The position numbers and the translations under genes are program-made. From Cyanobacteriota bacterium (GTDB taxonomy: Bacteria > Cyanobacteriota > Cyanobacteriia > Thermostichales > Thermostichaceae), in the NCBI GenBank assembly GCA_033764955.1, contig JANRIL010000045.1:1-64000 (forward strand): a stretch of 64,000 bases of DNA. Reading direction: 5' to 3'. The notes under the pieces are model-generated. The model did not search any database. It saw only the letters and a program-made list of their open reading frames with translations, and had not been told where the DNA came from. Shown here one piece after another: positions 3,730-20,634 of this stretch (position 1 is the stretch's first letter; every line of letters begins with the position of its first letter).

Positions 3730-4288
3730 TCCGTCTCCATCTAAATACATTATTCTGGAGGAGTTTTTGAAGCTGCCGGAAACTAAATCTGCCAGCGAAT
3801 ATATTGATAGGCAGATCATCCAGAAACTAATGCCACAGGGAAGGCACAGCACCATTCAAACGGAGTTTTCTACTAGCATTAATATGGTTCTTAAGCCTTA
3901 ACAAATTGCCCGATCCTTTTCAGAGCTACGTTGTACGTTTGCTGGATCCTCGACAGTTCCGGATGTATCTGTGTTTACTTGGCAGCGAATTCCCCGTGAC
4001 CAAAACGGTGAGGTTGCCAATACCTTTTCCATCCCTCCTGACTGGACTATTGAAATCCTCTCACCTGAGCAAAGCCAAACTAAAGCAACCAAAAATATTC
4101 TGGATTGTCTTAATCATGGAACTCAAATGGGTTGGTTAATTGACCCTGATGAGCAAACGGTTTTTGTCTATCTGCCAAAGCAGCAGCCAGCAGTGTTTGA
4201 CCAGTTGGCTCAAGCCCTTCCCGTCCCTTCCTTTGCCAATCGGTTAAATTTGAGTGTGGGTTTGGTCTTTGACTGGTTGGTGGACTAA
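3730..4288 (+). pseudogene. Uma2-family (DUF820) endonuclease, interrupted by an in-frame stop near 3899
   Basis: LEEFLKLPETKSASEYID..MPQGRHSTIQ..*QIARSFSELRCTF..PDVSVF..PPDWTIEILSPEQS..GWLIDP. Confidence 0.8.
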
Positions 4289-5673: not shown

Positions 5674-7394
5674 GGTTGACAGCGTTGCCGTTCTTGGGCA
5701 ATCTGGGGTTCGATCCAGGAATAGGCAAAATGGCTGACACAGGTAAGGCGGGGAAATTGTTGCTGAAGGGTTTGCATCTGCACCTCCAGCATGGGGCGTT
5801 GGCGCAGGCTTTGTCCCCATAATCCGGCTAAAGCTGGACAAATCAAGGTTTCCGCTGGAGCGGCTTCGATCACTCGTTGCACCTGCTGAGCTACGCAGGA
5901 GGCATCTTCGCACTTGGCATAAGCCATCACATGCCATTCCAGTTGGGCATCAAATTGATCCCAGGGTTGCAGGCGGGAGTCATAGCCCGATTGAACGCTA
6001 GCATTAGCATCAGGGAAAAACACCGCCCCCGCCGGGATCCCTTGGGTTTGAGCGGGTGAGGTAGCCGCCCGCAAAAAGTCGAGAATGCCAAATCGGGCAA
6101 AATCCACGGCGAGCTGCCAGAGTTGAGGCTGCCAGGTTGCTTGCCGCACCTCTGCACTGGGGGTAGGGCTGGGACTGGGGCTAGCCGAAGGAGTCGGCGC
6201 AGGAGAGGCCTCCCGAACGAGTTCCCTTTGCACAGGGCTAACCACTCGCTCCTCAGGGGAGGAATCCAGGGGTTCCTCGCCGGAAGCATTGCCCAAAGCC
6301 CACCCGCGATCCCCCACCAGTTCATCCTCTGGAGAGGGGCTGGGGTTAGATGAAGCTCCACTCAAACCAGAATCGGCAGGACGCCAAGCCACTGTCTGAT
6401 CGGGAAACTGTTGATCCAAAGTCAAGACATCTTGGGTGGTAATGTAGCCCTGTTGGCGATAGCGATCTAGCAGGGCTTGACTGGCGGGATTGGATCCCAG
6501 GTTGCGAAAGGCTTGAGCCGCTGCTTCCCCATGAATCCACAAATCCTTGACGTTGCTGGCTACCGAAGCGGATCCCGAACTGCGGGGATAGCGAATGTAG
6601 TCGAACAAAATGCCATCCGGTCGGCGAGCTAAGACCTGCTCCACGAGGCGGGCATAATCCTGGCGAGCTTGGGGATGAAAGGGATCCACAAACACCTGAT
6701 CGGGACCGGCCTGCTGCTCCAGTTGTTCTAGAGAAGCGGTGGCGGGATCCAAAATGGTCGTGTTACCACTGCCGTTGCGGGCTAGTGCTGCCTGACGGTC
6801 GGGTCTTTCTCCATAGCTATAGCCAAAGTTGAGGGAAAATAACCAGGCATAGGCAGATAATCCCCGTCGCCGCGCCAGGGTGAGGGCTTGATCCAAAAGA
6901 TCCACCGATGGCAGGATGCTCGGCCAGGGATCCCCCTGCGGCAAAATCACTCGTCCATCATAAAAAGTCTCGATGAAGACGCGGTTATAGCCCAAATTAA
7001 CAATTCGATCCAAGACCTTTTCCAGAGCACCTGGGTTGGCATCACAGGCATAAAGTCGCAACCAAATGGCTTGAATAGGTGGCCAGCGCCGTTGCCGACA
7101 CTCGCTCAGGGCGCGGCGATGTTCTGCCACCATCTGAGTGTAAGCTGCCCAGGCAGCATCCGATCCTCCTGCCTGTTGGCGCAGTTGTTCCTTGCGGGCA
7201 ATCGCCTCTGCCGACTGCTGACAATAACTATTCAATGGGGAATGGTCGAATGCTGCCGGAACTTGACTACCGAACCGTTGCGCTGAGCTGGGGATGCTGA
7301 GTAGGGCAAATAGGAGCGCGATCCCCAGCCCTATCCACCCGCGATAGCGATATATTGATAGCTTACGGATCAAAGCCAACACCTCATCCATCAA
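5670..7394 (-). CDS. Secreted glycoside hydrolase-like (GHL10/DUF187-type) protein
   Basis: N-terminal hydrophobic signal; LDRIVNLGYNRVFIETFYDG, AYAWLFSLNFG, PDGILFDYIRYP. Confidence 0.75.
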   Translation of the reverse strand: MMDEVLALIRKLSIYRYRGWIGLGIALLFALLSIPSSAQRFGSQVPAAFDHSPLNSYCQQSAEAIARKEQLRQQAGGSDAAWAAYTQMVAEHRRALSECRQRRWPPIQAIWLRLYACDANPGALEKVLDRIVNLGYNRVFIETFYDGRVILPQGDPWPSILPSVDLLDQALTLARRRGLSAYAWLFSLNFGYSYGERPDRQAALARNGSGNTTILDPATASLEQLEQQAGPDQVFVDPFHPQARQDYARLVEQVLARRPDGILFDYIRYPRSSGSASVASNVKDLWIHGEAAAQAFRNLGSNPASQALLDRYRQQGYITTQDVLTLDQQFPDQTVAWRPADSGLSGASSNPSPSPEDELVGDRGWALGNASGEEPLDSSPEERVVSPVQRELVREASPAPTPSASPSPSPTPSAEVRQATWQPQLWQLAVDFARFGILDFLRAATSPAQTQGIPAGAVFFPDANASVQSGYDSRLQPWDQFDAQLEWHVMAYAKCEDASCVAQQVQRVIEAAPAETLICPALAGLWGQSLRQRPMLEVQMQTLQQQFPRLTCVSHFAYSWIEPQIAQERQRCQP

Positions 7395-9699: not shown

Positions 9700-12600
9700 T
9701 TAACGGCGGGCAGTCGGTTCGGGGGTAAGGCTACGCCGCTTGGAAACCATTTGATAAGCTTCCACAATATCGCCGATCACCCAAGCCTGAAACTTCTCTA
9801 CACCGATACCACACTCAAACCCAGCCGCCACCTCCCGCACGTCATCCTTAAACCGTTTGAGGGAATCCAAACGCCCCTCAAAGACCAGTTCTCCCCGTCG
9901 CCGCACCCGCAGGTGGGCGTTACGCACAATCTTGCCCGATTGCACATAGCTGCCAGCAATTGCCCCTTTGCCAATGGTAATTACTTGACGGACTTCCGCC
10001 TGACCGAGGGGTTCTTCCACCTGTTCAGGTTCCAGTAATCCTTCCATCGCCGCTCGCAGATCATCGAGCAGGTTGTAAATCACATCGTACTCGCGGATAT
10101 CCACCCCATAGCGATCCGCTAACAGACGGGCACTGGCTGCCGTGCTAGTCGTAAAGCCAAGGATAATCGCGTTACTAGCCACCGCCAAATCGACATCGGT
10201 TTCTGTGATTTCGCCGGGAGCCGACAGCAACACCCGTAGCTGCACTTCCTGCTGGGGCAGATCCTGCAAGGAGGCCAGAATAGCTTCGGCGGATCCCTGA
10301 ACATCGGTCTTGAGGATTAAATTCAGTTCCTTGAGTTGACCCTCTTGAGCTTGGGCGGAGACACTGCCCAAACTGGCTCGCCGAGATAGACTAGTTTGTT
10401 GCAGACGGGCTTGATGTTGCTCCTCTGCCCTAGTTTCCGCCACCTGACGGGCTTCCCGCTCGTCTCGATAGACCAAAAATTCGTCTCCCGCCGCTGGAAC
10501 GCCATTCAAGCCCAACAGTTGCACCGCCGAGGACGGCCCAGCCTCCTGGAGGCGGTGTCCACGGTCATCCACCATGGCTTTGACGCGACCCAGCACGGAT
10601 CCCGCCACCAAGGTATCCCCAACGCGCAATGTACCGTTTTGCACCAAAAGGGTGGCAATCGGACCACGCGATTTATCCAGGTTGGCCTCGACAACAGTTC
10701 CACGGGCGGGTCGGTCGGGATTAGCCTGCAATTCTCCAATCTCAGCCACCAGCAGGATCATTTCCAATAGGCTATCCAGGTTGAGGCGGGCTAAAGCACT
10801 AACTTCCACCATGGGAGTATCTCCCCCCCATTCCTCTGGTACCAAGCTATGTTCCGCCAGTTGTTGTTTGATTCGGTCAGGCTGGCTATCGGGTTTATCG
10901 ATTTTGTTGACCGCAACAATGATGGGAACCTGAGCTGCTTGCGCGTGGCTAATGGCTTCTAGGGTTTGGGGCTGTACGCCATCATCCGCGGCCACGACGA
11001 GAACCGCAATATCTGTGACTTTGGCTCCTCTGGCTCGCATGGCGGTGAAGGCTTCGTGGCCAGGGGTATCCAAAAAGACAACCCGCTTGCTTTCCCCTTC
11101 ATGCTGCACATCCACATGGTAGGCTCCAATCCGTTGGGTGATCCCTCCCGCCTCTCCTTCTACGACCTTGGTGTCGCGGATGGCATCCAGTAAGGTGGTT
11201 TTGCCGTGATCGACGTGACCCATAATGGTGACCACGGGAGAACGGGAGACCAGATGCTCAATGTCGTCTAGGTCGAGCATTTCCGTCTTTTTGGCGGTAG
11301 ATTCCACCTGTTCAATTTCGATGGTGTATTCCAGCTCTTTGGCGACAACCTCGATAGTGGGGCGATCCAGCAGTTGGTTAAGATTGACCATCAACCCTTT
11401 CAAAAAGAGGATCTTAATGATTTCGGTGGGGGCAATCCGCATCCGATTCGCCAATTCCTGTACAGTTAACTCTCCGTGCAGGGAAAGAATCTTTTGTTGT
11501 GGCTCTTGCTCCGTTCTGGCTGTCTCTTGAGTAGCCTGGTGCGAACGGCGTCCTCGTCCAGCTAACCCGACGCTGGGGGGCCTTACTCTCGCTAGGGGAG
11601 GGGAGGTGGCAACATGCTGAGAGGGTGGCTTAGCGCTAGGACGGGGCAGAGGTTTCAGGGTATTGAGTTCCGCCTGCTTGGCTACCACAGATAGGGTGGT
11701 GTCAATTTCTAGCGTTTCCCCTTCTCCTTCTCCTTTACGGCGGCTACGCTTCCGCTTCGCTTGGGCACCACGCCCTACCCCCCGTTTCAGGGCTAGCAAT
11801 TCTTCATCCTCAGTCTCCTCCACTTCTTTGCGGCGCAATCGTGCCACAGGCCGAACCGGGGCATCCGCCAAAACAGGATTAGGACGCACTGGTGGAGTCA
11901 GGGATCCATCCGGGTTAGCTGTTGGGCGACTGGGGGGAGCCACCAGATCTGTTTTCAGACGAGGGGTGGGGCGAAGAGCTTTGTCGGGTGATTTCGTCCC
12001 CTCCCCGTCGGGGGTAGGGATCCCTTCTTTGCCCTGGAGAGCACGGGTTTCCGCCGCTCGTGTTCCCGGTCGGACGGGGGCACCCACCAACTGAGGGCGA
12101 GGGCTGGTCGGCTTGCTGGGGACGGGAGGAGCGGCCTCCGCTGGCCGCAGCGCTTTTACAGGCTCACTCGAACGGGGTCGGGGAGAGCTTAGGCTGGGAC
12201 GAGCCGGAGGAGCTACAGAATCCCGTTCCTGCTTACCAGGAGGAACTTCTGGCTGGGGGCGAGGGCTGGGGCGACCTTCCGGCGAAGCAGGGCGGCGGCT
12301 GGGAGCAGTCGCCGCAGGGCGGACGGGCGGCTCCGAGGAACGGGGAGGGGGAGCCAGTACCGCCGGACGCTGAGGAGATTGGGGTTCTGGCGGGGGAGGG
12401 GTCGGTTCTGAGAGGGGCGTTAGATTGGGGTCACTGAGGGAGAGAGGCGGCTCCACCTTCGGACTTTCCACCAGCCGCTGAGGAGCCACTGGGCGTTGGG
12501 GTGCCAGCGGGGGAGTCTCCTTAACTGTTTTTTCGGCAACTGTTTTTTCCGCGGATTCCGGCAGAGCCATTGCATCCGTTGAAGGTGGGGAAAGAGATTC

Positions 12601-13215
12601 TGACGCTTCGGGAAGGGGGGGGCGCTGGGGAGTAGTATTTTTTTCGGGAGGGCGCTGGGGAGGACGCACCAAGGTTGCGGAAGCAGCCTCAGCAGCAGCA
12701 GACCGACTCGGACGTTGGGGCACTTCGGGCGGGAAAGCGGTTTCGGCGGCGGACGGCGGAGAAACCTCCGCAAGTGGAGGGCGAGGAGTGGAGATCTTTT
12801 CTCCAACGGGTCTCCGCACCTCCAAGATATGCTGTGGACGGTCGTTCCGGCTGGGTTTGGGCTGAGGTCGGGGGGGGGTGGCGCGGGGCTTACTAGGAGC
12901 TGGCGGGGAGGGGTTGGAGTGGGTCAAATCTCCCCGCACCTGCTGAGCCTGCTCACGGGTAATTGTACTGCTATGGCTCTTATAGGGAATCTCTAGGCGG
13001 GTACAGACATCCATAACATCGCGGTTATCCCGACCCATTTCTCGTGCCAAATCATAGATGCGAACTTTATCGGGATCCTTTTCAGACACCGCCACCTCAG
13101 AGGTCTCGCTGAGAGAGGCTGCTCCACTGCCGGAGGGAGGATCGGTAGGGGGGGAGGGATCCTGCCAAGAAGGAGGATGCTCATGAGCGAGGGAAGTGGT
13201 TTCGGATGGGGTCAT
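9700..13215 (-). CDS. infB: Translation initiation factor IF-2 with long Pro-rich N-terminus
   Basis: [11 protein letters not shown]-domain; [42 protein letters not shown]. Confidence 0.98.
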
Positions 13216-13377
13216 AGGTTAGGGGATAGAAGCCAGTAAAAGGACAGGAAAAGTAATGGGCAGGTTCTGAGGAAATGCTGATAGAGAAGGAAGTCAACTC
13301 AGGGAAATCCAGAGGAGATAGGGATCTCGCCAGAAAGGGGCATAAGACAGGATGATTCAGGCCAGCACCGCTACCTG

Positions 13378-13653
13378 CTAATGAGGGGAGGCAAGTCGCT
13401 GCCACAAAACCTCATAGATGTGAGGCGGAATGGAAGCACGGAGGGCACGACCCAGACGATTTTTCTTTTGAGCATCCTGTAGGCAGCGAGATTGACGACA
13501 TAGATAGGCCGAGCGACCCATCCCTAAATCTAACTGAACTTGTTGCGAGGAAGCCACCCGCACAACACGCCAGAATTGGGATCGAGGGGCTAGCAGACGA
13601 CAACTGACGCAACAGCGTAGGGGTTGTCGGGGGGATTGAGCAGAAGTGAACAC
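13378..13653 (-). CDS. ylxR: YlxR (RnpM) family RNA-binding protein
   Basis: PLRCCVSCR..WRVVR..GMGRSAYLC..AQKKNRLGRAL; immediately upstream of infB. Confidence 0.9.
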   Translation of the reverse strand: MFTSAQSPRQPLRCCVSCRLLAPRSQFWRVVRVASSQQVQLDLGMGRSAYLCRQSRCLQDAQKKNRLGRALRASIPPHIYEVLWQRLASPH

Positions 13654-14277: not shown

Positions 14278-14514
14278 ATGAAAACTGCAATTTCCCTTCC
14301 AGATTCAGTTTTTGATGAGGCGGAAGCACTAGCTCAGCAGTTGGGCTTGTCGCGCAGTGAGCTTTATACGAAAGCCTTGCAAGCGTATTTGAAAAAGCAC
14401 AATCGCAATCAAATCTTGCACAAGCTGAACCAAGTTTACTCTCAAGAGGCTTCCGGACTGGATCCTACGATGGCAAAGATGCAATTTATGTCTCTCCCTC
14501 GTGGGGATTGGTAA
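14278..14514 (+). CDS. CopG/RHH-type antitoxin of a MazF/PemK TA pair (in cassette)
   Basis: MKTAISLPDSVFDEAEALAQQLGLSRSELYTKAL; stop overlaps the toxin start. Confidence 0.85.
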   Translation: MKTAISLPDSVFDEAEALAQQLGLSRSELYTKALQAYLKKHNRNQILHKLNQVYSQEASGLDPTMAKMQFMSLPRGDW

Positions 14515-14852
14515 TGTATCGGGGAGAAATTTGGTGGGCGAATTTACCTGATCCAGTGGGTTCAGAGCCTGGATATCGTCGTCCCGTTTTAGTCGTTCAA
14601 GATGATCCTTATTACTCAAAGCCGTATCAGTAAAGTTGTCGTTGTTATTATCACTTCAAATATTCAGTTGGCAGAAGCCCCAGGTAATGTATTTTACCGA
14701 AAGCAGCAACAGGCTTGTCTAAGGATTCAGTCGCTAATGTATCTCAAATTCTCACAGTCGATAAAGCATTCCTGGTTGAATGTATTGGTTCTCTGCCAAA
14801 TGACTTACAGGAGGAGATAGATGATGGACTACGAACAATCTTGTATCTGTAG
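14514..14852 (+). pseudogene. mazF: MazF/PemK toxin, inactivated by two frameshifts
   Basis: MYRGEIWWANLPDPVGSEPGYRRPVLVVQDD / TQSRISKVVVVIITSNIQLAEAPGNV / LPKAATGLSKDSVANVSQILTVDK..LRTILYL; the middle segment is out of frame and the start frame meets TAA before the second shift. Confidence 0.85.
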
Positions 14853-14859
14853 CAACACT

Positions 14860-14944
14860 TGCTAACAAGTCGCTACCGGAACGTGGCAAGCTGGTCGATT
14901 GAGTATTCAAAGTTATCTGCGTCCGGTGAGTTTGGTCGTTAATC
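14860..14944 (+). repeat. attC site of the solitary MazEF cassette (cassette 14151-14938)
   Basis: R'' TGCTAAC is complementary to the cassette start G/TTAGC at 14150; inner ACCGGA..TCCGGT pairing; R' G/TTAATC at 14938. Confidence 0.85.
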
Positions 14945-15166
14945 TTCTTGGTTCTCCATTGATTGCGAATGCCTGACAAATCCTCTAAGGCGTAGGCATT
15001 TGCCCCGTGAAGTGCAGCCAGTTTCTTGCTTATACGGTGGCTGCAGTCGCGCATGAACCGCTTCTCTCTGCCTGACGTAGTTCCCTATACCCTTTAGCTT
15101 TGCTGACAAGGGCTGGTTGTCCATTCTTTTCCTGAAGAGAGCCTTGAATTGAGGGATCCCGAACCC

Positions 15167-15435
<269 letters not shown>

Positions 15436-15437
<2 letters not shown>

Positions 15438-15890
15438 ATGGGGTTTCTCAATGCCGTTTCGTGATGACCCATTCGTCAAGGGCTGACAACGTCTCGCGTC
15501 CCAACTAAAAAAGCTTACATACTAGCTCAGCGGTTAGAGCACTTTCCTCAAGAGAAAGGTGTCGTAGGTTCAAATCCTACATATGACCAACAGCTTTTTT
15601 GACTTGCGTGAGGCTCATTTTTCTGGGTAAAGGGCTGCGCCCTAACTTCCAGAGCCTACATACTCTCCCAAACAAGGTGCGCCTATGGAGGTAGGTGCTG
15701 CAAGCCTGAACCTAAATAGCAGGCGTAGATAGGGGGATCCCCCTCTAACTCTACATGGCTCTGGTTACTAGCGCGGCTCTGCATACCCGTCATGATCCTC
15801 ACTCATCTCAAGCCAATTCCAACAACGGCATCCGATGTCAGAGAAAGATCGTTGGATCCATCCTTCGATAGCGGGTAGCGATCCAACCAT
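15436..15890 (+). ncRNA. Putative large structured ncRNA with an embedded tRNA-like domain (candidate Y-RNA analogue)
   Basis: No ORF of 60 aa or more in ~470 nt; long-range pairing TTTCTC/ATGCCGTT (15444-58) with AACGGCAT/GAGAAA (15824-46); D, anticodon and T arms at 15523-15580; several further hairpins. Confidence 0.7.
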
Positions 15891-15907: not shown

Positions 15908-17104
15908 ATGTTCGATACTTATGATCAAGAAGCTCCCACCCAAACGGTGGTCAGCAGCAAAACCCTTTTAAGTTTGGGCTGGCAGCCCCTCTATCGCCAA
16001 CTGGACTGGCTTTATTTGCAGCGCTTGATCACCCAAGATCCGGGGGAGTTTTGGCGGCACACGCTGGATGTGTGCGGAGAAGTTGCCAGCACCCTGGGGC
16101 GAACTGAATATACCTGGTGGGCAAACTGGCTGGGGGTGATCTCCGGCTATACCCGTCAGGAAGTGGAGAAGTTTTGGGACTATATCACTCCTGCTCCTAC
16201 GGAACCCAACTGGCGGCAACCCACCCTCACCACCCTTACCCCCGTTACTTATCCGGTGAGCCGTCAAGGGATCCCCATTCACGCTCTCTTGCATCGTTTG
16301 CAGGAGCTAACCGTGTTGAAGGTTTTAGAGTGGCTGGGGCCTCCTGACCGGATTACTCAACTGTTTCAGGGGCGATATTACTATCTGCCGCTGGATCGCT
16401 TTCGTCAATGGCATCAGTTGCAGGCGGATGGCACCATTTGGGGCTATTGGCAGGCTGCTGACATCTGGTTACAAATTACCCCCTATGGATCCCGACAGCG
16501 CAGCTACACCCTGATCGGGTCGGATCTCGATCCCTGGATCCGCAAAGCTACCCATAATTTAGCGGTGATGGTGAGTGGTTATCAAAGCCGGATTGGGCAG
16601 GTGCAGAGTTTGCACCCCCTCCGCAGTTTCCCCGCCGAGATTCAGGCTTTTTCGGATGTTGTGCAGGAGCGAGTCTGGCAACAGTCGCAGCTAGCGATTT
16701 TGGTGCATGGGGATCCCGGAACGGGCAAAACCGCCTGGACTCAAGCCATCGCCAAAGAGATCTTGGTGCCACTGGGGTATGTGATCTTTATTTTGGATCA
16801 TGATGCCGTTGAGAATTTTGTTCCTCCCAGCTATCTCAGCCGGATCGGTCTAATTATCAATGAAGCCGATAATTTGGCACAAAACCGCGCTCAAACGGCG
16901 GGATTTAACCACACCAAAACGGAACATGTTTTGAGCCTTTTGGATGGCACCCTTCATCAAAGTGTGTTGGATGAATCCCAGGATCAGCAAGCCCCTCGTT
17001 TGGTGGTGTTGCTAACCTGCAATACCCTGGAGCGGATGGATCCCGCCGTTTTGCGAAAAGGCCGGATTGATTGTCTCTATGAGTTTCGGCATCGGTTTGT
17101 TTAG
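15908..17104 (+). CDS. AAA+ ATPase with uncharacterised N-terminal domain
   Basis: Walker A GDPGTGKT, variant Walker B LIINEAD, second region of homology TCNTLERMDPAVLRKGRID; RBS GAGGAGG. Confidence 0.9.
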   Translation: MFDTYDQEAPTQTVVSSKTLLSLGWQPLYRQLDWLYLQRLITQDPGEFWRHTLDVCGEVASTLGRTEYTWWANWLGVISGYTRQEVEKFWDYITPAPTEPNWRQPTLTTLTPVTYPVSRQGIPIHALLHRLQELTVLKVLEWLGPPDRITQLFQGRYYYLPLDRFRQWHQLQADGTIWGYWQAADIWLQITPYGSRQRSYTLIGSDLDPWIRKATHNLAVMVSGYQSRIGQVQSLHPLRSFPAEIQAFSDVVQERVWQQSQLAILVHGDPGTGKTAWTQAIAKEILVPLGYVIFILDHDAVENFVPPSYLSRIGLIINEADNLAQNRAQTAGFNHTKTEHVLSLLDGTLHQSVLDESQDQQAPRLVVLLTCNTLERMDPAVLRKGRIDCLYEFRHRFV

Positions 17105-17218
17105 CCACGGATGGAGAGCTGTGAGTTTCTCCATTTCTCCTCCTATTCGATTGATCAATTTTGATTGGTCAATTTTTAGATAGGTTGATCATTTTCTGGA
17201 TGATATTTTGTTTTTTAG

Positions 17219-18682
<1,464 letters not shown>

Positions 18683-19051: not shown

Positions 19052-19870
19052 GTGCAGCATAAGGTCTCGAACAATGGGAAAAATGTTTACTACAGCAAAA
19101 TTGCTGATATTTATGATCAAACTCGCTGGCTGACAGAACAAGTCGCTGAGGAAGTTGCAGATTTTATTCTTACTCTAGTCAAGGCAACTCCTGAAACCAC
19201 TTTTTTGGAACCTGGTATAGGAACTGGGTTAAACGTTCTTCCTTTAGTAAGACGTGGCTATTGTGTGACTGGCATTGATGTTTCTCAGGAAATGCTTAAC
19301 CAGTTTTGTCAAAAGCTGCCTGAAATTCCCCCGAATCTGAAACTGATTCATGGTGATGCCTCACAACTACCTTTTGCAGACACCAGCTTTGACGTTGTGC
19401 TAACTGTTCATATGCTTCATACTGTTTCCAACTTAGGAACATTTTTAGATGAAATCGATCGTGTCCTAAAACCAAAAGGTTTCTATCTTAATGCTCAATG
19501 GATTACCCCACCCTCACGACTAGAATTTGAGCAGTATTTCAAAACTATCTTATCTAAGTATCAAGAGCCACAACCTTCACAACAGCCAGGTAAAGTAATT
19601 AACGAAATTAATGTAGAGAAGTACTTACGTAATAAGGGGTATCAGTGTAATTATTTGATAGCTAAGGAATGGACGGTCAGCAACCAGGTTCAGGAATTAC
19701 TCAGTTTCTACAGGTCACGGGCATACGGGTTGTGTTGGCTCGTTCCAGATGAAGCGTTTCATCTGGCAATGGAAGAGTTGGAAGTATTTTGTCATGACTA
19801 TTATGGTTCATTGGAGGTGGAGTTATCATCCCAGGCACGATTTGAAATATGGGCATACACCGCAAGCTAA
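19052..19870 (+). CDS. Class I SAM-dependent methyltransferase (cassette)
   Basis: FLEPGIGTG, TGIDVSQEML, GDASQLPFADTSFDVV, RVLKPKG. Confidence 0.9.
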   Translation: MQHKVSNNGKNVYYSKIADIYDQTRWLTEQVAEEVADFILTLVKATPETTFLEPGIGTGLNVLPLVRRGYCVTGIDVSQEMLNQFCQKLPEIPPNLKLIHGDASQLPFADTSFDVVLTVHMLHTVSNLGTFLDEIDRVLKPKGFYLNAQWITPPSRLEFEQYFKTILSKYQEPQPSQQPGKVINEINVEKYLRNKGYQCNYLIAKEWTVSNQVQELLSFYRSRAYGLCWLVPDEAFHLAMEELEVFCHDYYGSLEVELSSQARFEIWAYTAS

Positions 19871-19950
19871 CACTTCACGGCAGCGGACGGTCGAAAGTCG
19901 CTTATACTGTGTTCGAGGTTATCTACCGCCGCTACGTTATGCCGTTAGGC
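19865..19950 (+). repeat. attC site
   Basis: R'' AGCTAAC matches the cassette start GTTAGCT; GCAGCGGACGG..CCGCCGCTAC pairing; R' GTTAGGC at 19944. Confidence 0.85.
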
Positions 19951-19956
19951 AGAAAT

Positions 19957-20634
19957 ATGAAAATCACTGAAGTTCGCCAACAGAGCTGGCACACCCTAAT
20001 TTGTAATTACTACGTTTGCTCCTCATGTAGTGTTGTGGATCGTGATTCATCGCGCATGACAATTGGCACTCCTTGCAAGAAGTGCAGTGCACCAAGCCCT
20101 TCTGCTCGCTTATATTTCGGAGTAGAACTTTGCCAGCTTGTGAATTCTATTCAGGATCTATATTTTATTCGTAGCGGAAAAATCACGCACGAGGATGAGG
20201 ACTTCGGAACACAGAAGTATGACATGGAATCCGATATGCGCCCGATATCTGCCATATTATTCTGCACTATTTTTGATGTCCTGATGACAGGGCTAATCAA
20301 AAATATAATGCTTCGAAAAAGCATCCCACAGGAAATTCAAGATTTGTTACTCAAGAACTACCAGTTTGCGATGAAAAAACGCGATCAGCTTTATCCAAAA
20401 CTTCTGAAGGAATCATTCCTCGAATCGATAAAAACAATTAAGGTGGAGACGACACACGATTTCGAGCCTCATTTCGATTATGCGGATAAACTAGCTAAAA
20501 AAAGAAATAAATTTGTTCACAAAGGTGTAAAATGGGTCTTCACGGAAGACGAACTTGACAACATTCCGCATGAATTGCACCCACTGTTTAGCGGTTTTGT
20601 TGCCCTACATAATTATCAAAATGATAAAATCTAA
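19957..20634 (+). CDS. Cassette protein: Zn-ribbon plus HEPN-like domain
   Basis: CSSC..CKKC at the N-terminus; RNKFVH (RxxxxH) near the C-terminus; AT-rich. Confidence 0.6.
   Translation: MKITEVRQQSWHTLICNYYVCSSCSVVDRDSSRMTIGTPCKKCSAPSPSARLYFGVELCQLVNSIQDLYFIRSGKITHEDEDFGTQKYDMESDMRPISAILFCTIFDVLMTGLIKNIMLRKSIPQEIQDLLLKNYQFAMKKRDQLYPKLLKESFLESIKTIKVETTHDFEPHFDYADKLAKKRNKFVHKGVKWVFTEDELDNIPHELHPLFSGFVALHNYQNDKI

Follow-up and report, generated by a model that had tools for sequence, protein, structure and literature searches.

A tRNA-like RNA element, probably of the Y-RNA class, upstream of a predicted divergent Ro60 homologue in Cyanobacteriota

Results

The locus and its protein genes

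The window (the whole 64,000-nucleotide stretch analysed) carries two RNA modules and three protein genes close together on the forward strand:

15237..15437, + strand: conserved 66-aa protein ending RPEAVYG, with a homologue in 50 of 56 related loci
15491..15614, + strand: RNA element with a tRNA-like head
15629..15784, + strand: second RNA module, differing in its head but built on the same handle (GCGCCCTAAC .. CCTACATAC ... TTACTAGCGCGG); match to the RNA model R1 of 35.9 bits over the full model
15908..17104, + strand: AAA+ ATPase, 398 aa, between the RNA genes and the Ro60-like gene (Pfam AAA 6e-11; PADLOC TRIP13 9e-10)
17237..18682, + strand: predicted divergent Ro60/Rsr homologue, with a helical TROVE-like ring and a vWA domain with MIDAS motif (from fold and remote homology)

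Ro60 with its Y RNAs is a conserved RNA-surveillance particle and a human autoantigen. The protein encoded at 17237-18682 is annotated only as vWA or hypothetical. Its AF2 model has a pLDDT of 91.7, and the best 12 Foldseek matches are all full-length Ro60/Rsr/TROVE proteins, with E values from 6e-11 to 6e-9. VIA-align superposes the model on D. radiodurans Rsr (2nvo) with Z 22.2 (about 438 aa aligned, rmsd 3.8) and on human Ro60 with Z 22.1; isolated vWA domains come next at Z about 16. The family profile aligns by hhalign with a canonical 534-aa cyanobacterial TROVE protein (L077; 96.4%, E 1.1e-9, 418 columns). The MIDAS motif DxSxS (D305, S307 and S309) is invariant, and 17 of 64 family members match Pfam vWA_Ro60 (PF25045). 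Pfam TROVE (PF05731) gives no match for the protein, for the genome at E<=10 or for any of the 64 family members at E<=0.1, and the TROVE matches in five carrier genomes fall only on other ORFs, of about 535 aa. By sequence there is no solved relative, the best phmmer match in the PDB having an E value of 0.66; NCBIfam holds nothing useful for this protein and PADLOC no family. Members of the family are about 477-481 aa long and coexist with canonical Ro60 in two of the five genomes checked. The family is present in 33 of 301 sampled cyanobacterial genomes, and the protein library holds 986 representative relatives. A protein search gave 2977 hits, backed by several thousand metagenomic loci. 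Judged from the predicted fold and from profile similarity, 17237-18682 encodes a divergent Ro60 homologue that current annotation does not recognise.

The 66-aa protein has a mean column identity of 86% and an AF2 pLDDT of 89. Its best matches in the structure search are all beta-grasp proteins but weak (MoaD, Z 5.4), with no Foldseek match at E<=0.001 and no Pfam or NCBIfam family; the model is suggestive of a beta-grasp (ubiquitin/MoaD-like) fold. The AAA+ gene is specific to the window locus (0 of 56 related loci), and a comparison of its N-terminal region with the 242-aa protein of Nostocales loci revealed no similarity (best E 0.098). ThiF-like and 276-aa genes sit on other contigs of the window genome.

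Anatomy of the RNA element

By inspection, the sequence at 15491-15614 (+) holds a whole tRNA cloverleaf, with the arms in normal order, enclosed by two outer helices. Its parts are:

15491..15499, + strand: helix P1, 5' strand GTCTCGCGT, paired with GCGTGAGGC at 15606-15614
15500..15506, + strand: internal loop, 5' side CCCAACT; near-invariant columns, family consensus CCC-Y-R-A-Y
15507..15515, + strand: helix P2, 5' strand AAAAAAGCT, paired over 9 bp with AGCTTTTTT at 15592-15600
15516..15585, + strand: tRNA-like head, comprising TACATAC (invariant), D arm, anticodon arm (CAA), 5-nt variable loop, T arm and 3' acceptor strand ATATG
15518-21 with 15582-85, + strand: acceptor, CATA with TATG, 4 Watson-Crick pairs
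15523-24, + strand: U8-A9, TA
15525-40, + strand: D arm, GCTC / AGCGGTTA / GAGC
15542-58, + strand: anticodon arm, CTTTC / CTCAAGA / GAAAG
15559-63, + strand: variable loop GTGTC, 5 nt
15564-80, + strand: T arm, GTAGG / TTCAAAT / CCTAC
15586-89, + strand: ACCA, directly 3' of the acceptor
15586..15591, + strand: unpaired 3' bulge ACCAAC (contains ACCA), between acceptor and P2
15592..15614, + strand: 3' half of the handle, comprising P2 strand AGCTTTTTT, loop GACTT and P1 strand GCGTGAGGC

The anticodon CAA occupies 15549-51, with U33 and G37 present. A mismatch, C15522.A15581, unique to the window copy, tops the acceptor. P1 has 9 bp, three of them G.U, and a T-rich run follows it on the 3' side, as in the type B homologues. 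The sequence-only reading had listed the D, anticodon and T arms, the CATA/TATG acceptor and the ACCA, and all lie where it placed them; the enclosing stems that it described are there too, slightly longer than it had them, at 9 bp each.

ARAGORN reports tRNA-Leu(caa) at 15515-15588 (74 nt), the sole tRNA that it calls in the 64 kb, and the Rfam tRNA model scores 44.9 bits (E 2.5e-6; gathering score 29), the alignment lacking two consensus acceptor positions per strand. Related elements are labelled tRNA-Pyl, tRNA-SeC, suppressor or odd tRNAs by tRNA finders. Between 13600 and 19200, Rfam at E<=10 yields the tRNA and chance-level matches only, with no Y RNA, YrlA or tmRNA; window-wide, YrlA has no match at its gathering score (69 bits). 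The minimum free energy of 15480-15625 is not significant alone (z -1.57; 15 of 200 shuffles fold equally well), and the corresponding structure has P1, P2 and three hairpins with zero acceptor pairs. Fold energy by itself is thus unconvincing, and we consider the element more than chance because its homologues conserve its pairing.

Linkage to the Ro60-like gene and conservation of the fold

The element ends 1.6 kb upstream of the Ro60-like gene on the same strand. Among 56 related loci, which were selected by the protein alone, 52 have an RNA-model match of at least 88 bits, all upstream of the gene and on the same strand. The carriers span many cyanobacterial genera and include one Acidobacteria MAG. 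A sample of the phylum gives the RNA in 12 of 151 genomes at E<=1e-12, 11 of these 12 with the protein as well, in a search that partly revisits the species set from which R1 was built. In all 10 carrier genomes besides the window's own, the gene has an RNA match 275-2033 nt upstream on its own strand. The window genome has only one strong copy; the other full-length R1 matches (C2:73647, C10, C36) were rejected as ordinary tRNAs with chance flanks.

Over 55 aligned homologues, 93.7% of the paired cells are complementary, against at most 54.5% with slid partners, and the observed values are reached by none of 500 shuffles. Two-sided (compensatory) changes occur in 16 of the 40 modelled pairs, a count inflated by relatedness, as many of these changes separate just the paralogous types A and B. 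In P1, 88.9% of cells are paired and 4 of 10 pairs show compensatory changes; in P2, the figures are 99.6% of cells and two compensatory pairs. The enclosing stems, on whose conservation the sequence-only reading had staked its view, are thus conserved with covariation. Within the head, such changes are seen in 3 of 4 pairs of the D stem, 4 of 5 of the anticodon stem and 3 of 5 of the T stem, so that every helix but the acceptor shows them. In 21-24 of the 55 homologues, the acceptor fails to pair at 1-72 and 2-71, and the ordinary 7-bp acceptor that would have spoken for simple decay was not found among them.

Tertiary positions of tRNA vary together as well. The Levitt pair 15-48 is A-U in 85 of 93 homologues and G-C in three, including the window; A18 occurs with G55 (22 of 22) and G18 with U55 (69 of 69). 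These sequence signals fit an L-shaped head.

The window copy scores 107.9 bits, low among the 98 tRNA-like matches, 91 of which lie above it at 113-147 bits. The window locus is also rearranged: the AAA+ gene is inserted, and neither a mini handle in the 5' UTR nor an L7/L12 paralogue (both described below) is present. Given the rearrangement, the window copy could be decaying. It is a different matter to suppose that the element as such is a decayed tRNA gene, a tRNA-derived repeat or a mobile-element scar with inverted repeats, and has no function. The mismatch at the top of the acceptor and the non-significant fold energy would suit this, as would the neighbourhood, a variable island with an RHH antitoxin-like ORF and short broken ORFs at 14278-15124. 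The same 130-nt architecture, however, recurs at the same position and strand in 52 of 56 loci with compensatory changes outside the acceptor, and a single strong copy in the window genome speaks against a dispersed repeat. We regard this explanation as extremely improbable.

Anticodon, acceptor and decoding capacity

In type B sequences, the anticodon columns have an entropy of 1.37-1.55 bits compared with a mean of 0.18 elsewhere, and U33 is invariant. There are 15 distinct anticodon loops in 23 type B sequences and 10 in 31 type A sequences; 17 of the 31 distinct type A sequences have the anticodon CUA. An invariant U33 beside a highly variable anticodon is compatible with a decoy or sensor role, and neutral loop drift explains these data too. 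Type A acceptors have 6 pairs. The 3' tails vary across the family (AATCAAC, AACAAC, ..ACCAC): the encoded ACCA of the window copy and of type A is not family-wide, most homologues having AUCA or AACA instead.

Bacterial tRNA-Leu is of class II, with a long variable arm. The element has the cloverleaf with D, anticodon and T arms and the 7-nt anticodon loop of a tRNA-Leu, and lacks the 7-bp acceptor, the long variable arm and an anticodon conserved among orthologues. The other tRNA-Leu genes of the genome are 79-83 nt long, compared with 74 nt for the element, and among them is a canonical tRNA-Leu(CAA) of 83 nt. Because of its 4-pair acceptor, 5-nt variable loop and unconserved anticodon, and with the canonical gene elsewhere, the element is not a working tRNA-Leu, and the sequence-only reading was right on this point. 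Judged on these sequence features, it is not a decoding tRNA.

The element might instead be a precursor of a working tRNA: RNase P and 3' processing would free the cloverleaf, which would keep the encoded CCA as its end, be charged and decode, and the Nostocales type A copies with CUA could then act as a suppressor. Class I pre-tRNAs share with the element the three arms, U8, A14, G18-G19, U33, a purine at 37, the T loop GTTCAAAT and an encoded CCA. The retained tertiary positions, the Rfam tRNA scores above gathering (44.9 bits in the window, 60.4 bits for the type A copy of locus L006), the ACCA of the window and type A copies, and the 6 acceptor pairs and frequent CUA of type A all agree with such a precursor. 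Arrays of tRNA genes adjoin the system in L044, L054 and G156, and the available text of Chen 2014 reports that, in vivo, RNase P cleaves the YrlA of M. smegmatis, which also acquires CCA. The element departs from a pre-tRNA in its acceptor, with 4 Watson-Crick pairs and a C.A mismatch in the window, and in its leader, which is wholly paired with the trailer through P2. It would be of the wrong class for Leu and redundant with the housekeeping tRNA-Leu(CAA). Its anticodon switches freely between close relatives, unlike that of orthologous tRNAs, most homologues lack the ACCA, and the 5' acceptor strand is invariant and common to non-tRNA heads, which points to a constraint other than pairing. 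A tRNA precursor is therefore, in our estimate, quite improbable.

One handle with several heads

The handle combines two helices, the outer P1 and the A.U-rich P2, with the asymmetric internal loop between them (CCCAACU / GACUU) and the invariant UACAUAC. We count 58 tRNA-like modules, 34 YrlA-like permuted ones, 20 with 'C' heads (about 177 nt) and 38 mini hairpins, and every handle, whatever its head class, has the inner 4 bp of P1 paired. One locus can carry up to five different heads. In Nostocales, one head mimics the GTPase-associated centre of 23S rRNA, and a 12-mer identical to a 23S segment is found with it, beside an L7/L12 paralogue gene. The 12-mer is absent from the window's assembly, in which the 23S gene is probably unassembled. 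The YrlA-like permuted modules of related loci match Rfam YrlA weakly, scoring 23.5 bits for L006 and 37.3 bits for L054.

The second module of the window, at 15629..15784, has a minimum free energy of -76.2 kcal/mol (z -4.98; none of 200 shuffles as good), and among the fetched loci its head is found elsewhere in L055 only. As an rRNA mimic it was rejected, with no Rfam match and with only 15-nt chance words in a blastn-short search against the genome.

In 36 of 56 loci, a mini handle lies in the 5' UTR of the Ro60-like gene, its end 42-115 nt before the start codon. Its placement resembles the usual autoregulation layout of RNA-binding proteins. By extension, the element itself might be a cis-acting part of the operon mRNA, serving processing, stability or autoregulation, which the Ro60-like protein would bind only for feedback. 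The transcript layout is in keeping with this: the element starts 54 nt past the stop of the small ORF, the sole promoter-like site found (15167-15196) is upstream of that ORF, and the + strand yielded no terminator-like site. Feedback, however, needs the handle alone, and a full tRNA fold, tertiary pairs and up to five heads per locus are in excess of it. The T-rich run after P1, in the window and in type B, also speaks for a free RNA rather than an mRNA element, and known Y RNAs, themselves co-transcribed or adjacent, then accumulate as free RNAs (Chen 2014, available text). We consider a purely cis-acting role unlikely.

Comparison with known Y RNAs

Bacterial Y RNAs, as described in the accessible portions of Chen 2014, are encoded no more than 4 kb from Ro60, on its strand, and contain tRNA-like domains. 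The element likewise lies a few kb from a Ro60 orthologue on the same strand, and has a conserved stem joining its two ends with an internal loop. YrlA (RF02553) is known from Salmonella, Mycobacterium and many other bacteria, and the cyanobacterial YrlAs adjoin canonical Ro60 of 533-534 aa (Chen 2014). Like YrlA, the element lies near a Ro60-type gene on the same strand and joins a stem, here a putative protein-binding one, to a tRNA-like domain in which D and T arms and conserved tertiary pairs are present and positions 15 and 48 covary. In YrlA, the order is T arm, closed 'acceptor' hairpin and D arm, and the Ro60-binding stem replaces the anticodon arm. The element, in contrast, has normal order and a 7-nt anticodon loop, its stem extends from the acceptor, and its putative partner protein belongs to a separate divergent family missed by Pfam TROVE. 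The statement of the sequence-only reading that this is no YrlA therefore stands as to topology and the absent Rfam YrlA match; the element probably still belongs with the Y RNAs in the wider sense, given the Ro60 homologue downstream.

The same source gives GNCGAAN0-1G as the 5' motif of bacterial Y RNAs and GGUCCGA as the sequence contacted by Xenopus Ro60. The 5' strand of the element, GTCTCGCGTCCCAACT, lacks the former. CGTCCCA at 15497-15503, at the end of P1 and into the loop, matches the latter in 5 of 7 positions and, by analogy, makes this segment with the loop CCCAACT a candidate contact of the Ro60-like protein. Metazoan Y RNAs resemble the element in their end-to-end stem with a conserved bulge or internal loop and in their U-rich 3' end; unlike it, they are without a tRNA-like module.

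The closest plan is that of Yrn1 of D. radiodurans, whose T and D features can be drawn opposite to those of YrlA, in a normal-order layout with an 'anticodon arm'; this likeness is judged from the partial description of Yrn1 in Chen 2014. As described there, Yrn1 lacks a full D arm and a variable region, has a loop of 6 nt and is missed by tRNA finders, whereas both ARAGORN and Rfam call the element, whose cloverleaf is complete. Yrn1 is thus a partial precedent for a normal-order tRNA-like Y RNA. A full-text literature search of incomplete coverage returned no earlier account of normal-order tRNA-like RNAs in a Ro60-like system of cyanobacteria. The available part of Santamaria-Gomez 2021, on cyanobacterial tRNA arrays, makes no mention of vWA, Ro60 or tRNA-like RNAs; in Kaur 2020 'trove' occurs in a reference title only; and a 2026 preprint on three tRNA-mimic families, as far as its available part goes, concerns other RNAs.

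Discussion

We conclude that 15491-15614 probably encodes a non-coding RNA of the Y-RNA class that belongs to a divergent Ro60 system, docks by its handle and presents a tRNA mimic. The class assignment rests on the divergent Ro60 homologue encoded 1.6 kb downstream. As part of this reading, the RNA would be expressed as a stable species. The handle would be the docking module, most likely binding the outer surface of the Ro60-like ring as the stems of Y RNAs bind Ro60; analogy and the mini copy in the 5' UTR both suggest that it binds this protein. The head would be a tRNA mimic in L-shape, with a truncated acceptor sealed by P2 and an anticodon that is free to vary. We infer that it recruits a tRNA-recognising partner, to which it most likely offers the tRNA shape and the anticodon loop. 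The partner would thereby be brought to the Ro60-like ring, or kept from it.

A more specific possibility, speculative and rather unlikely in our judgement, is that the Ro60-like particle serves as a sentinel or decoy, with RNAs modelled on what RNA-cutting toxins attack in the translation apparatus. A common handle would then park a panel of baits on the ring, among them tRNA heads with a fixed U-turn and a diversified anticodon. The element at 15491-15614 would be one tRNA-head bait and the permuted tRNA heads would be others; in Nostocales, the mimic of the 23S GTPase-associated centre and the 23S-identical 12-mer beside the L7/L12 paralogue would join them. If a bait were cut or captured, for example by an anticodon nuclease or by a ribotoxin of phage or competitor origin, Ro60 would act as the sensor, and the signal would pass to the linked beta-grasp/ThiF-like module or, in the window, to the AAA+ ATPase. 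If this were true, the anticodon variability would reflect an arms race, not drift.

For the Y-RNA-class reading that we prefer, the Ro60-like family would be a hidden second Ro60 system. As the family escapes TROVE-based annotation, it was missed by the earlier census of Y RNAs. Such elements, called as odd tRNAs, also pollute tRNA gene counts. The putative partner RNA is unusually explicit, a whole tRNA in normal order including the anticodon loop, and its heads are concrete baits for finding what the tRNA-like domain recruits. Cultivable carriers for such tests include Calothrix sp. NIES-2100, the source of locus L006, Nostoc NIES strains such as Nostoc linckia NIES-25, and Tolypothrix tenuis PCC 7101. 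The common handle suggests that Y RNAs may be adaptors that display chosen RNA shapes on Ro60.

Structure of the tRNA-like element

The tRNA-shaped RNA gene consists of two outer helices, P1 and P2, and an apical tRNA-like head. P1, an internal loop, P2 and the sequence UACAYAC together form what we call the handle, on which the head is carried. The locus includes the following features.

Features of the locus in the window
15237-15437 (+): small ORF, 66 aa, conserved among relatives
15491-15614 (+): the element
15629-15784 (+): second handle module, strongly structured (z -4.98), with a head of three hairpins without family assignment
15908-17104 (+): AAA+ ATPase, between the second RNA module and the Ro60-like gene
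17237-18682 (+): Ro60-like protein, 481 aa, with a weak Pfam vWA match

All the parts that the sequence-only reading had listed for the tRNA-like module are present.

Parts of the element, read from the sequence (all +)
P1, enclosing helix: 9 bp, GTCTCGCGT/GCGTGAGGC
P2, enclosing helix: 9 bp, AAAAAAGCT/AGCTTTTTT
Acceptor: CATA/TATG as the sole pairs plus a C.A mismatch, then ACCA
D arm: GCTC/AGCGGTTA/GAGC
Anticodon arm: CTTTC/CTCAAGA/GAAAG, with anticodon CAA, U33 and G37
Variable loop: 5 nt
T arm: GTAGG/TTCAAAT/CCTAC

ARAGORN calls Leu-CAA at 15515-15588, the only tRNA in the window, and the Rfam tRNA model scores 44.9 bits on the element with two acceptor positions deleted per side. Rfam YrlA and the other Y-RNA models give no match to the element even at E<=10, in agreement with the earlier statement that it is not a YrlA. 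The folding energy is unremarkable by itself (z -1.57), and the acceptor is unpaired in the MFE structure.

Conservation and covariation

Related loci, 56 in number, were fetched via the Ro60-like protein alone. One or two ARAGORN 'tRNAs' lie upstream on the strand of the gene in 51 of the 56; their anticodons are oddly mixed, with many CTA 'Pyl' calls, and every called module starts with TACATAC. R1, the covariance model of the element family, matches at 88 bits or more in 52 of the 56 loci, always on the + strand and upstream of the Ro60-like gene. Upstream sequence is shorter than 800 nt in two of the four loci without a match. Across a sample of the phylum, 33 of 301 genomes and 18 of 134 genera have the protein. 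The RNA is found at E<=1e-12 in 12 of 151 genomes, 11 of which also have the protein match, in a sample that overlaps the species used to train R1. In all ten genomes besides the window's own, an RNA match precedes the gene by 275-2033 nt on its strand.

The mean column identity of 55 sequences aligned with flanks is 81%. In the proposed structure the paired share of cells is 93.7%, compared with 54.5% at most once partners are slid, and none of 500 shuffles reaches the observed pairing values. Two-sided changes occur at 16 of 40 pairs, with compensatory pairs in the D stem (3/4), anticodon stem (4/5) and T stem (3/5), counts that are inflated by relatedness, many two-sided changes separating only types A and B, two paralogous kinds of tRNA-like handle module. 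The enclosing stems noticed at the outset are kept in homologues, with 99.6% of P2 cells paired. The acceptor shows no compensatory pair; the 5' strand never varies, and 21-24 of the 55 sequences leave the two outer pairs open, which makes the short acceptor a trait of the family and not a product of decay. Decay from an ordinary acceptor, which the sequence-only reading had named as the outcome that would speak against it, is thus not what the homologues show. That the element is simply a decayed gene or a repeat is extremely unlikely.

Tertiary pairs and anticodon of the head

Of 93 distinct sequences, 85 have A-U at the Levitt pair 15-48 and three, the window's included, have G-C. D-loop A18 occurs with T-loop G55 in 22/22 and G18 with U55 in 69/69, a co-variation that probably reflects few independent events. 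U33 is invariant among the tRNA-like modules. The anticodon columns of type B have 1.37-1.55 bits of entropy versus a mean of 0.18 for the rest, where one variable-loop column is as variable as the anticodon; 15 different anticodon loops occur in 23 type B sequences. In type A, the anticodon is CUA in 17 of 31 sequences. A separate 83-nt tRNA-Leu(caa) is present in the window's genome. The head takes the tRNA fold yet in all likelihood does not decode; the view that this is not a working tRNA is supported by the variable anticodons among homologues and by the genome's own tRNA-Leu. We regard it as very unlikely that the element, for all its tRNA scores, is a tRNA precursor; its ACCA is not general in the family, being replaced by AATCAAC in type B and by AACAAC in the window's nearest relatives.

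The Ro60-like protein

A weak vWA domain is the sole Pfam match of the 481-aa protein. Its relatives, about 70% identical and spread over many cyanobacterial genera, are named 'VWA domain-containing' or 'hypothetical' in public records; 2977 of 8000 scored candidates match it at E<=0.001. Pfam TROVE matches neither the protein, nor anything in the genome at E<=10, nor any of 64 family members, 17 of which match Pfam vWA_Ro60. The MIDAS residues are invariant in the family. An AlphaFold model from the 64-sequence alignment has a pLDDT of 91.7, and its 12 best Foldseek matches are full-length Ro60/Rsr/TROVE proteins (E 6e-11 to 6e-9). In VIA-align the model reaches Z 22.2 with D. radiodurans Rsr (rmsd 3.8 over 438 residues) and Z 22.1 with human Ro60, isolated vWA domains coming next at about Z 16. 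Hhalign of the family profile with a canonical 534-aa cyanobacterial TROVE protein gives 96.4% (E 1e-9, 418 columns). By its modelled fold and profile similarity, we place the 481-aa protein as a divergent Ro60.

This family is a paralogue distinct from canonical Ro60. TROVE matches in five carrier genomes fall solely on other ORFs of about 535 aa, in two of the five, and the supplement of Chen 2014 gives lengths of 533-534 aa for the cyanobacterial Ro60 proteins that it lists with YrlA. The window's genome has the divergent Ro60 only, without a canonical one. Beside the canonical 534-aa TROVE gene of another cyanobacterium, L077 2501-2619 (-) is a 119-nt Rfam tRNA match (46.3 bits) whose extended anticodon arm carries GGCCGATGAA, a GNCGAA-type motif; we presume it to be an open-acceptor form of that genome's canonical YrlA.

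A shared handle with different heads

The handle recurs beneath other heads in related loci. All head classes have the inner 4 bp of P1 fully paired, with 72-97% pairing in P2. Five handle modules lie in a typical Nostocales locus.

Handle modules of a typical Nostocales locus
tRNA-like A
Module C, about 177 nt
Module with T arm, hairpin and D arm, the order of YrlA
tRNA-like B
Mini hairpin, 68 nt (3877-3944 in locus L006)

Rfam YrlA matches to the YrlA-order module are weak, with 23.5 bits (E 0.026) for L006 and 37.3 bits for L054. In 36 of 56 loci, 42-115 nt separate the end of the mini hairpin from the start codon of the downstream Ro60-like gene, and a handle copy at this position suggests autoregulation. 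A purely cis-acting mRNA element is nevertheless an unlikely description of the element itself. The window has no mini handle; short direct repeats of type TGATCAATTTTGATTGGTCAATTTTT occupy 17105-17236 instead.

The element and 15629-15784 are the two handle modules of the window. Among the fetched loci, the head sequence of the latter is shared only with an Acidobacteriota MAG (L055 1263-1378). A third handle of the same genome lies elsewhere.

Third handle module of the window's genome
Contig C2:73407-73530 (-) in G000, equal to L058 about 1260-1440

It directly follows tRNA-Glu and tRNA-Gln genes. Here a short hairpin caps the handle, which takes the place of the anticodon arm in an outer tRNA-like frame; the frame has a 7-bp acceptor, D arm, long variable hairpin and T arm. 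Module A at L006 about 1420-1640 sits inside the same outer frame, as a 'tRNA within a tRNA' dumbbell. Upstream of that module, L006 1277-1360 is a mini tRNA-like element of acceptor stem and T arm only, and it aligns with the two termini of the Rfam tmRNA model (39.6 bits, gathering 47).

Neighboring genes, rRNA mimic and tRNA arrays

Related loci encode the small 66-aa protein (50/56), which models as a beta-grasp with an invariant RPEAVYG end and weak structural matches, a ThiF-like protein (35/56), proteins of 276 aa (38/56) and 242 aa (40/56) without known family, and a true L7/L12 paralogue (29/56). The small, ThiF-like and 276-aa proteins may form a ubiquitin-like or sulfur-carrier module. 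The L7/L12 paralogue of L006 (3346-3738; Pfam Ribosomal_L12 8e-23 plus dimerisation domain) lies between tRNA-like B and the Ro60-like gene; ThiF-family and 276-aa proteins follow that gene in relatives (L006 6622-8096). The window locus is without L7/L12, ThiF-like and the other extras and has instead the AAA+ ATPase, a homologue of which occurs in none of the 56 loci. ThiF-like and 276-aa homologues of the genome are on contigs C47 and C42.

At 19052-20634 (+) two ORFs follow the Ro60-like gene: a class I methyltransferase (PADLOC mad2 4e-21, MTase domain only) and, overlapping it, one that matches RiboL-PSP HEPN weakly (E 6e-4). The 56 related loci have neither ORF. Upstream of the system, 14278-15124 looks like a variable island, with an RHH antitoxin-like ORF (weak Pfam RHH matches) and several short ORFs that overlap and match no family; conserved ylxR-infB lies just past it (9700-13653, -).

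L006 also has an rRNA-mimic handle module at 6229-6420, downstream of the Ro60-like gene. Within it, 56 nt match the LSU rRNA model at bacterial positions 1093-1148 (51.7 bits, gathering 50) with clean structure, a region that we take to be the GTPase-associated centre. The module also contains a 12-mer, presumably the sarcin-ricin loop. The 12-mer occurs in 36 of 56 loci, and its other copies in a complete genome are at three sites, the one checked being in a 23S gene. The window's genome yielded neither the LSU match nor the 12-mer. Next to the system are tRNA arrays at L044 1462-3029 and L054 92-3188, with nine and 11 ARAGORN calls, the last of each being a tRNA-like handle module, and at L082 921-2968 (genome G156), with 15 Rfam tRNA matches.

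Taken with the variable anticodons, the accessory genes, rRNA mimic and tRNA arrays leave room for a reading in which the Ro60-like particle displays copies of toxin targets in the translation machinery, near the decoy idea of the sequence-only reading. We hold this to be rather unlikely.

Discussion

The element has the features by which Chen 2014 recognizes bacterial Y RNAs: it is encoded on the strand of Ro60 and at most 4 kb away, its stem is conserved and it carries a tRNA-like domain, the gene here being a remote Ro60. With its normal arm order and real anticodon arm, the head is closer to the Yrn1 drawing there than to YrlA. The handle of the family differs from known bacterial Y RNAs in lacking the motif GNCGAAN0-1G. 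The window's CGUCCCA shares five of seven positions with the Xenopus Ro60 contact GGUCCGA, as quoted by Chen 2014. Because of these criteria, the remote Ro60 and the Yrn1-like order of the head, we consider the element a probable Y-RNA-class partner. Expressed as RNA, it would dock through its handle on the Ro60-like ring, and the head would act as a tRNA mimic.

tRNA finders name the tRNA-like modules Pyl, SeC, Stop or odd tRNAs, a mislabelling that skews tRNA gene counts. Searches of open-access texts on Y RNA, Ro60 and TROVE yielded no description of this Ro60-like/tRNA-like RNA system. The element would add a further form to the known pairing of Ro60 and Y RNA.
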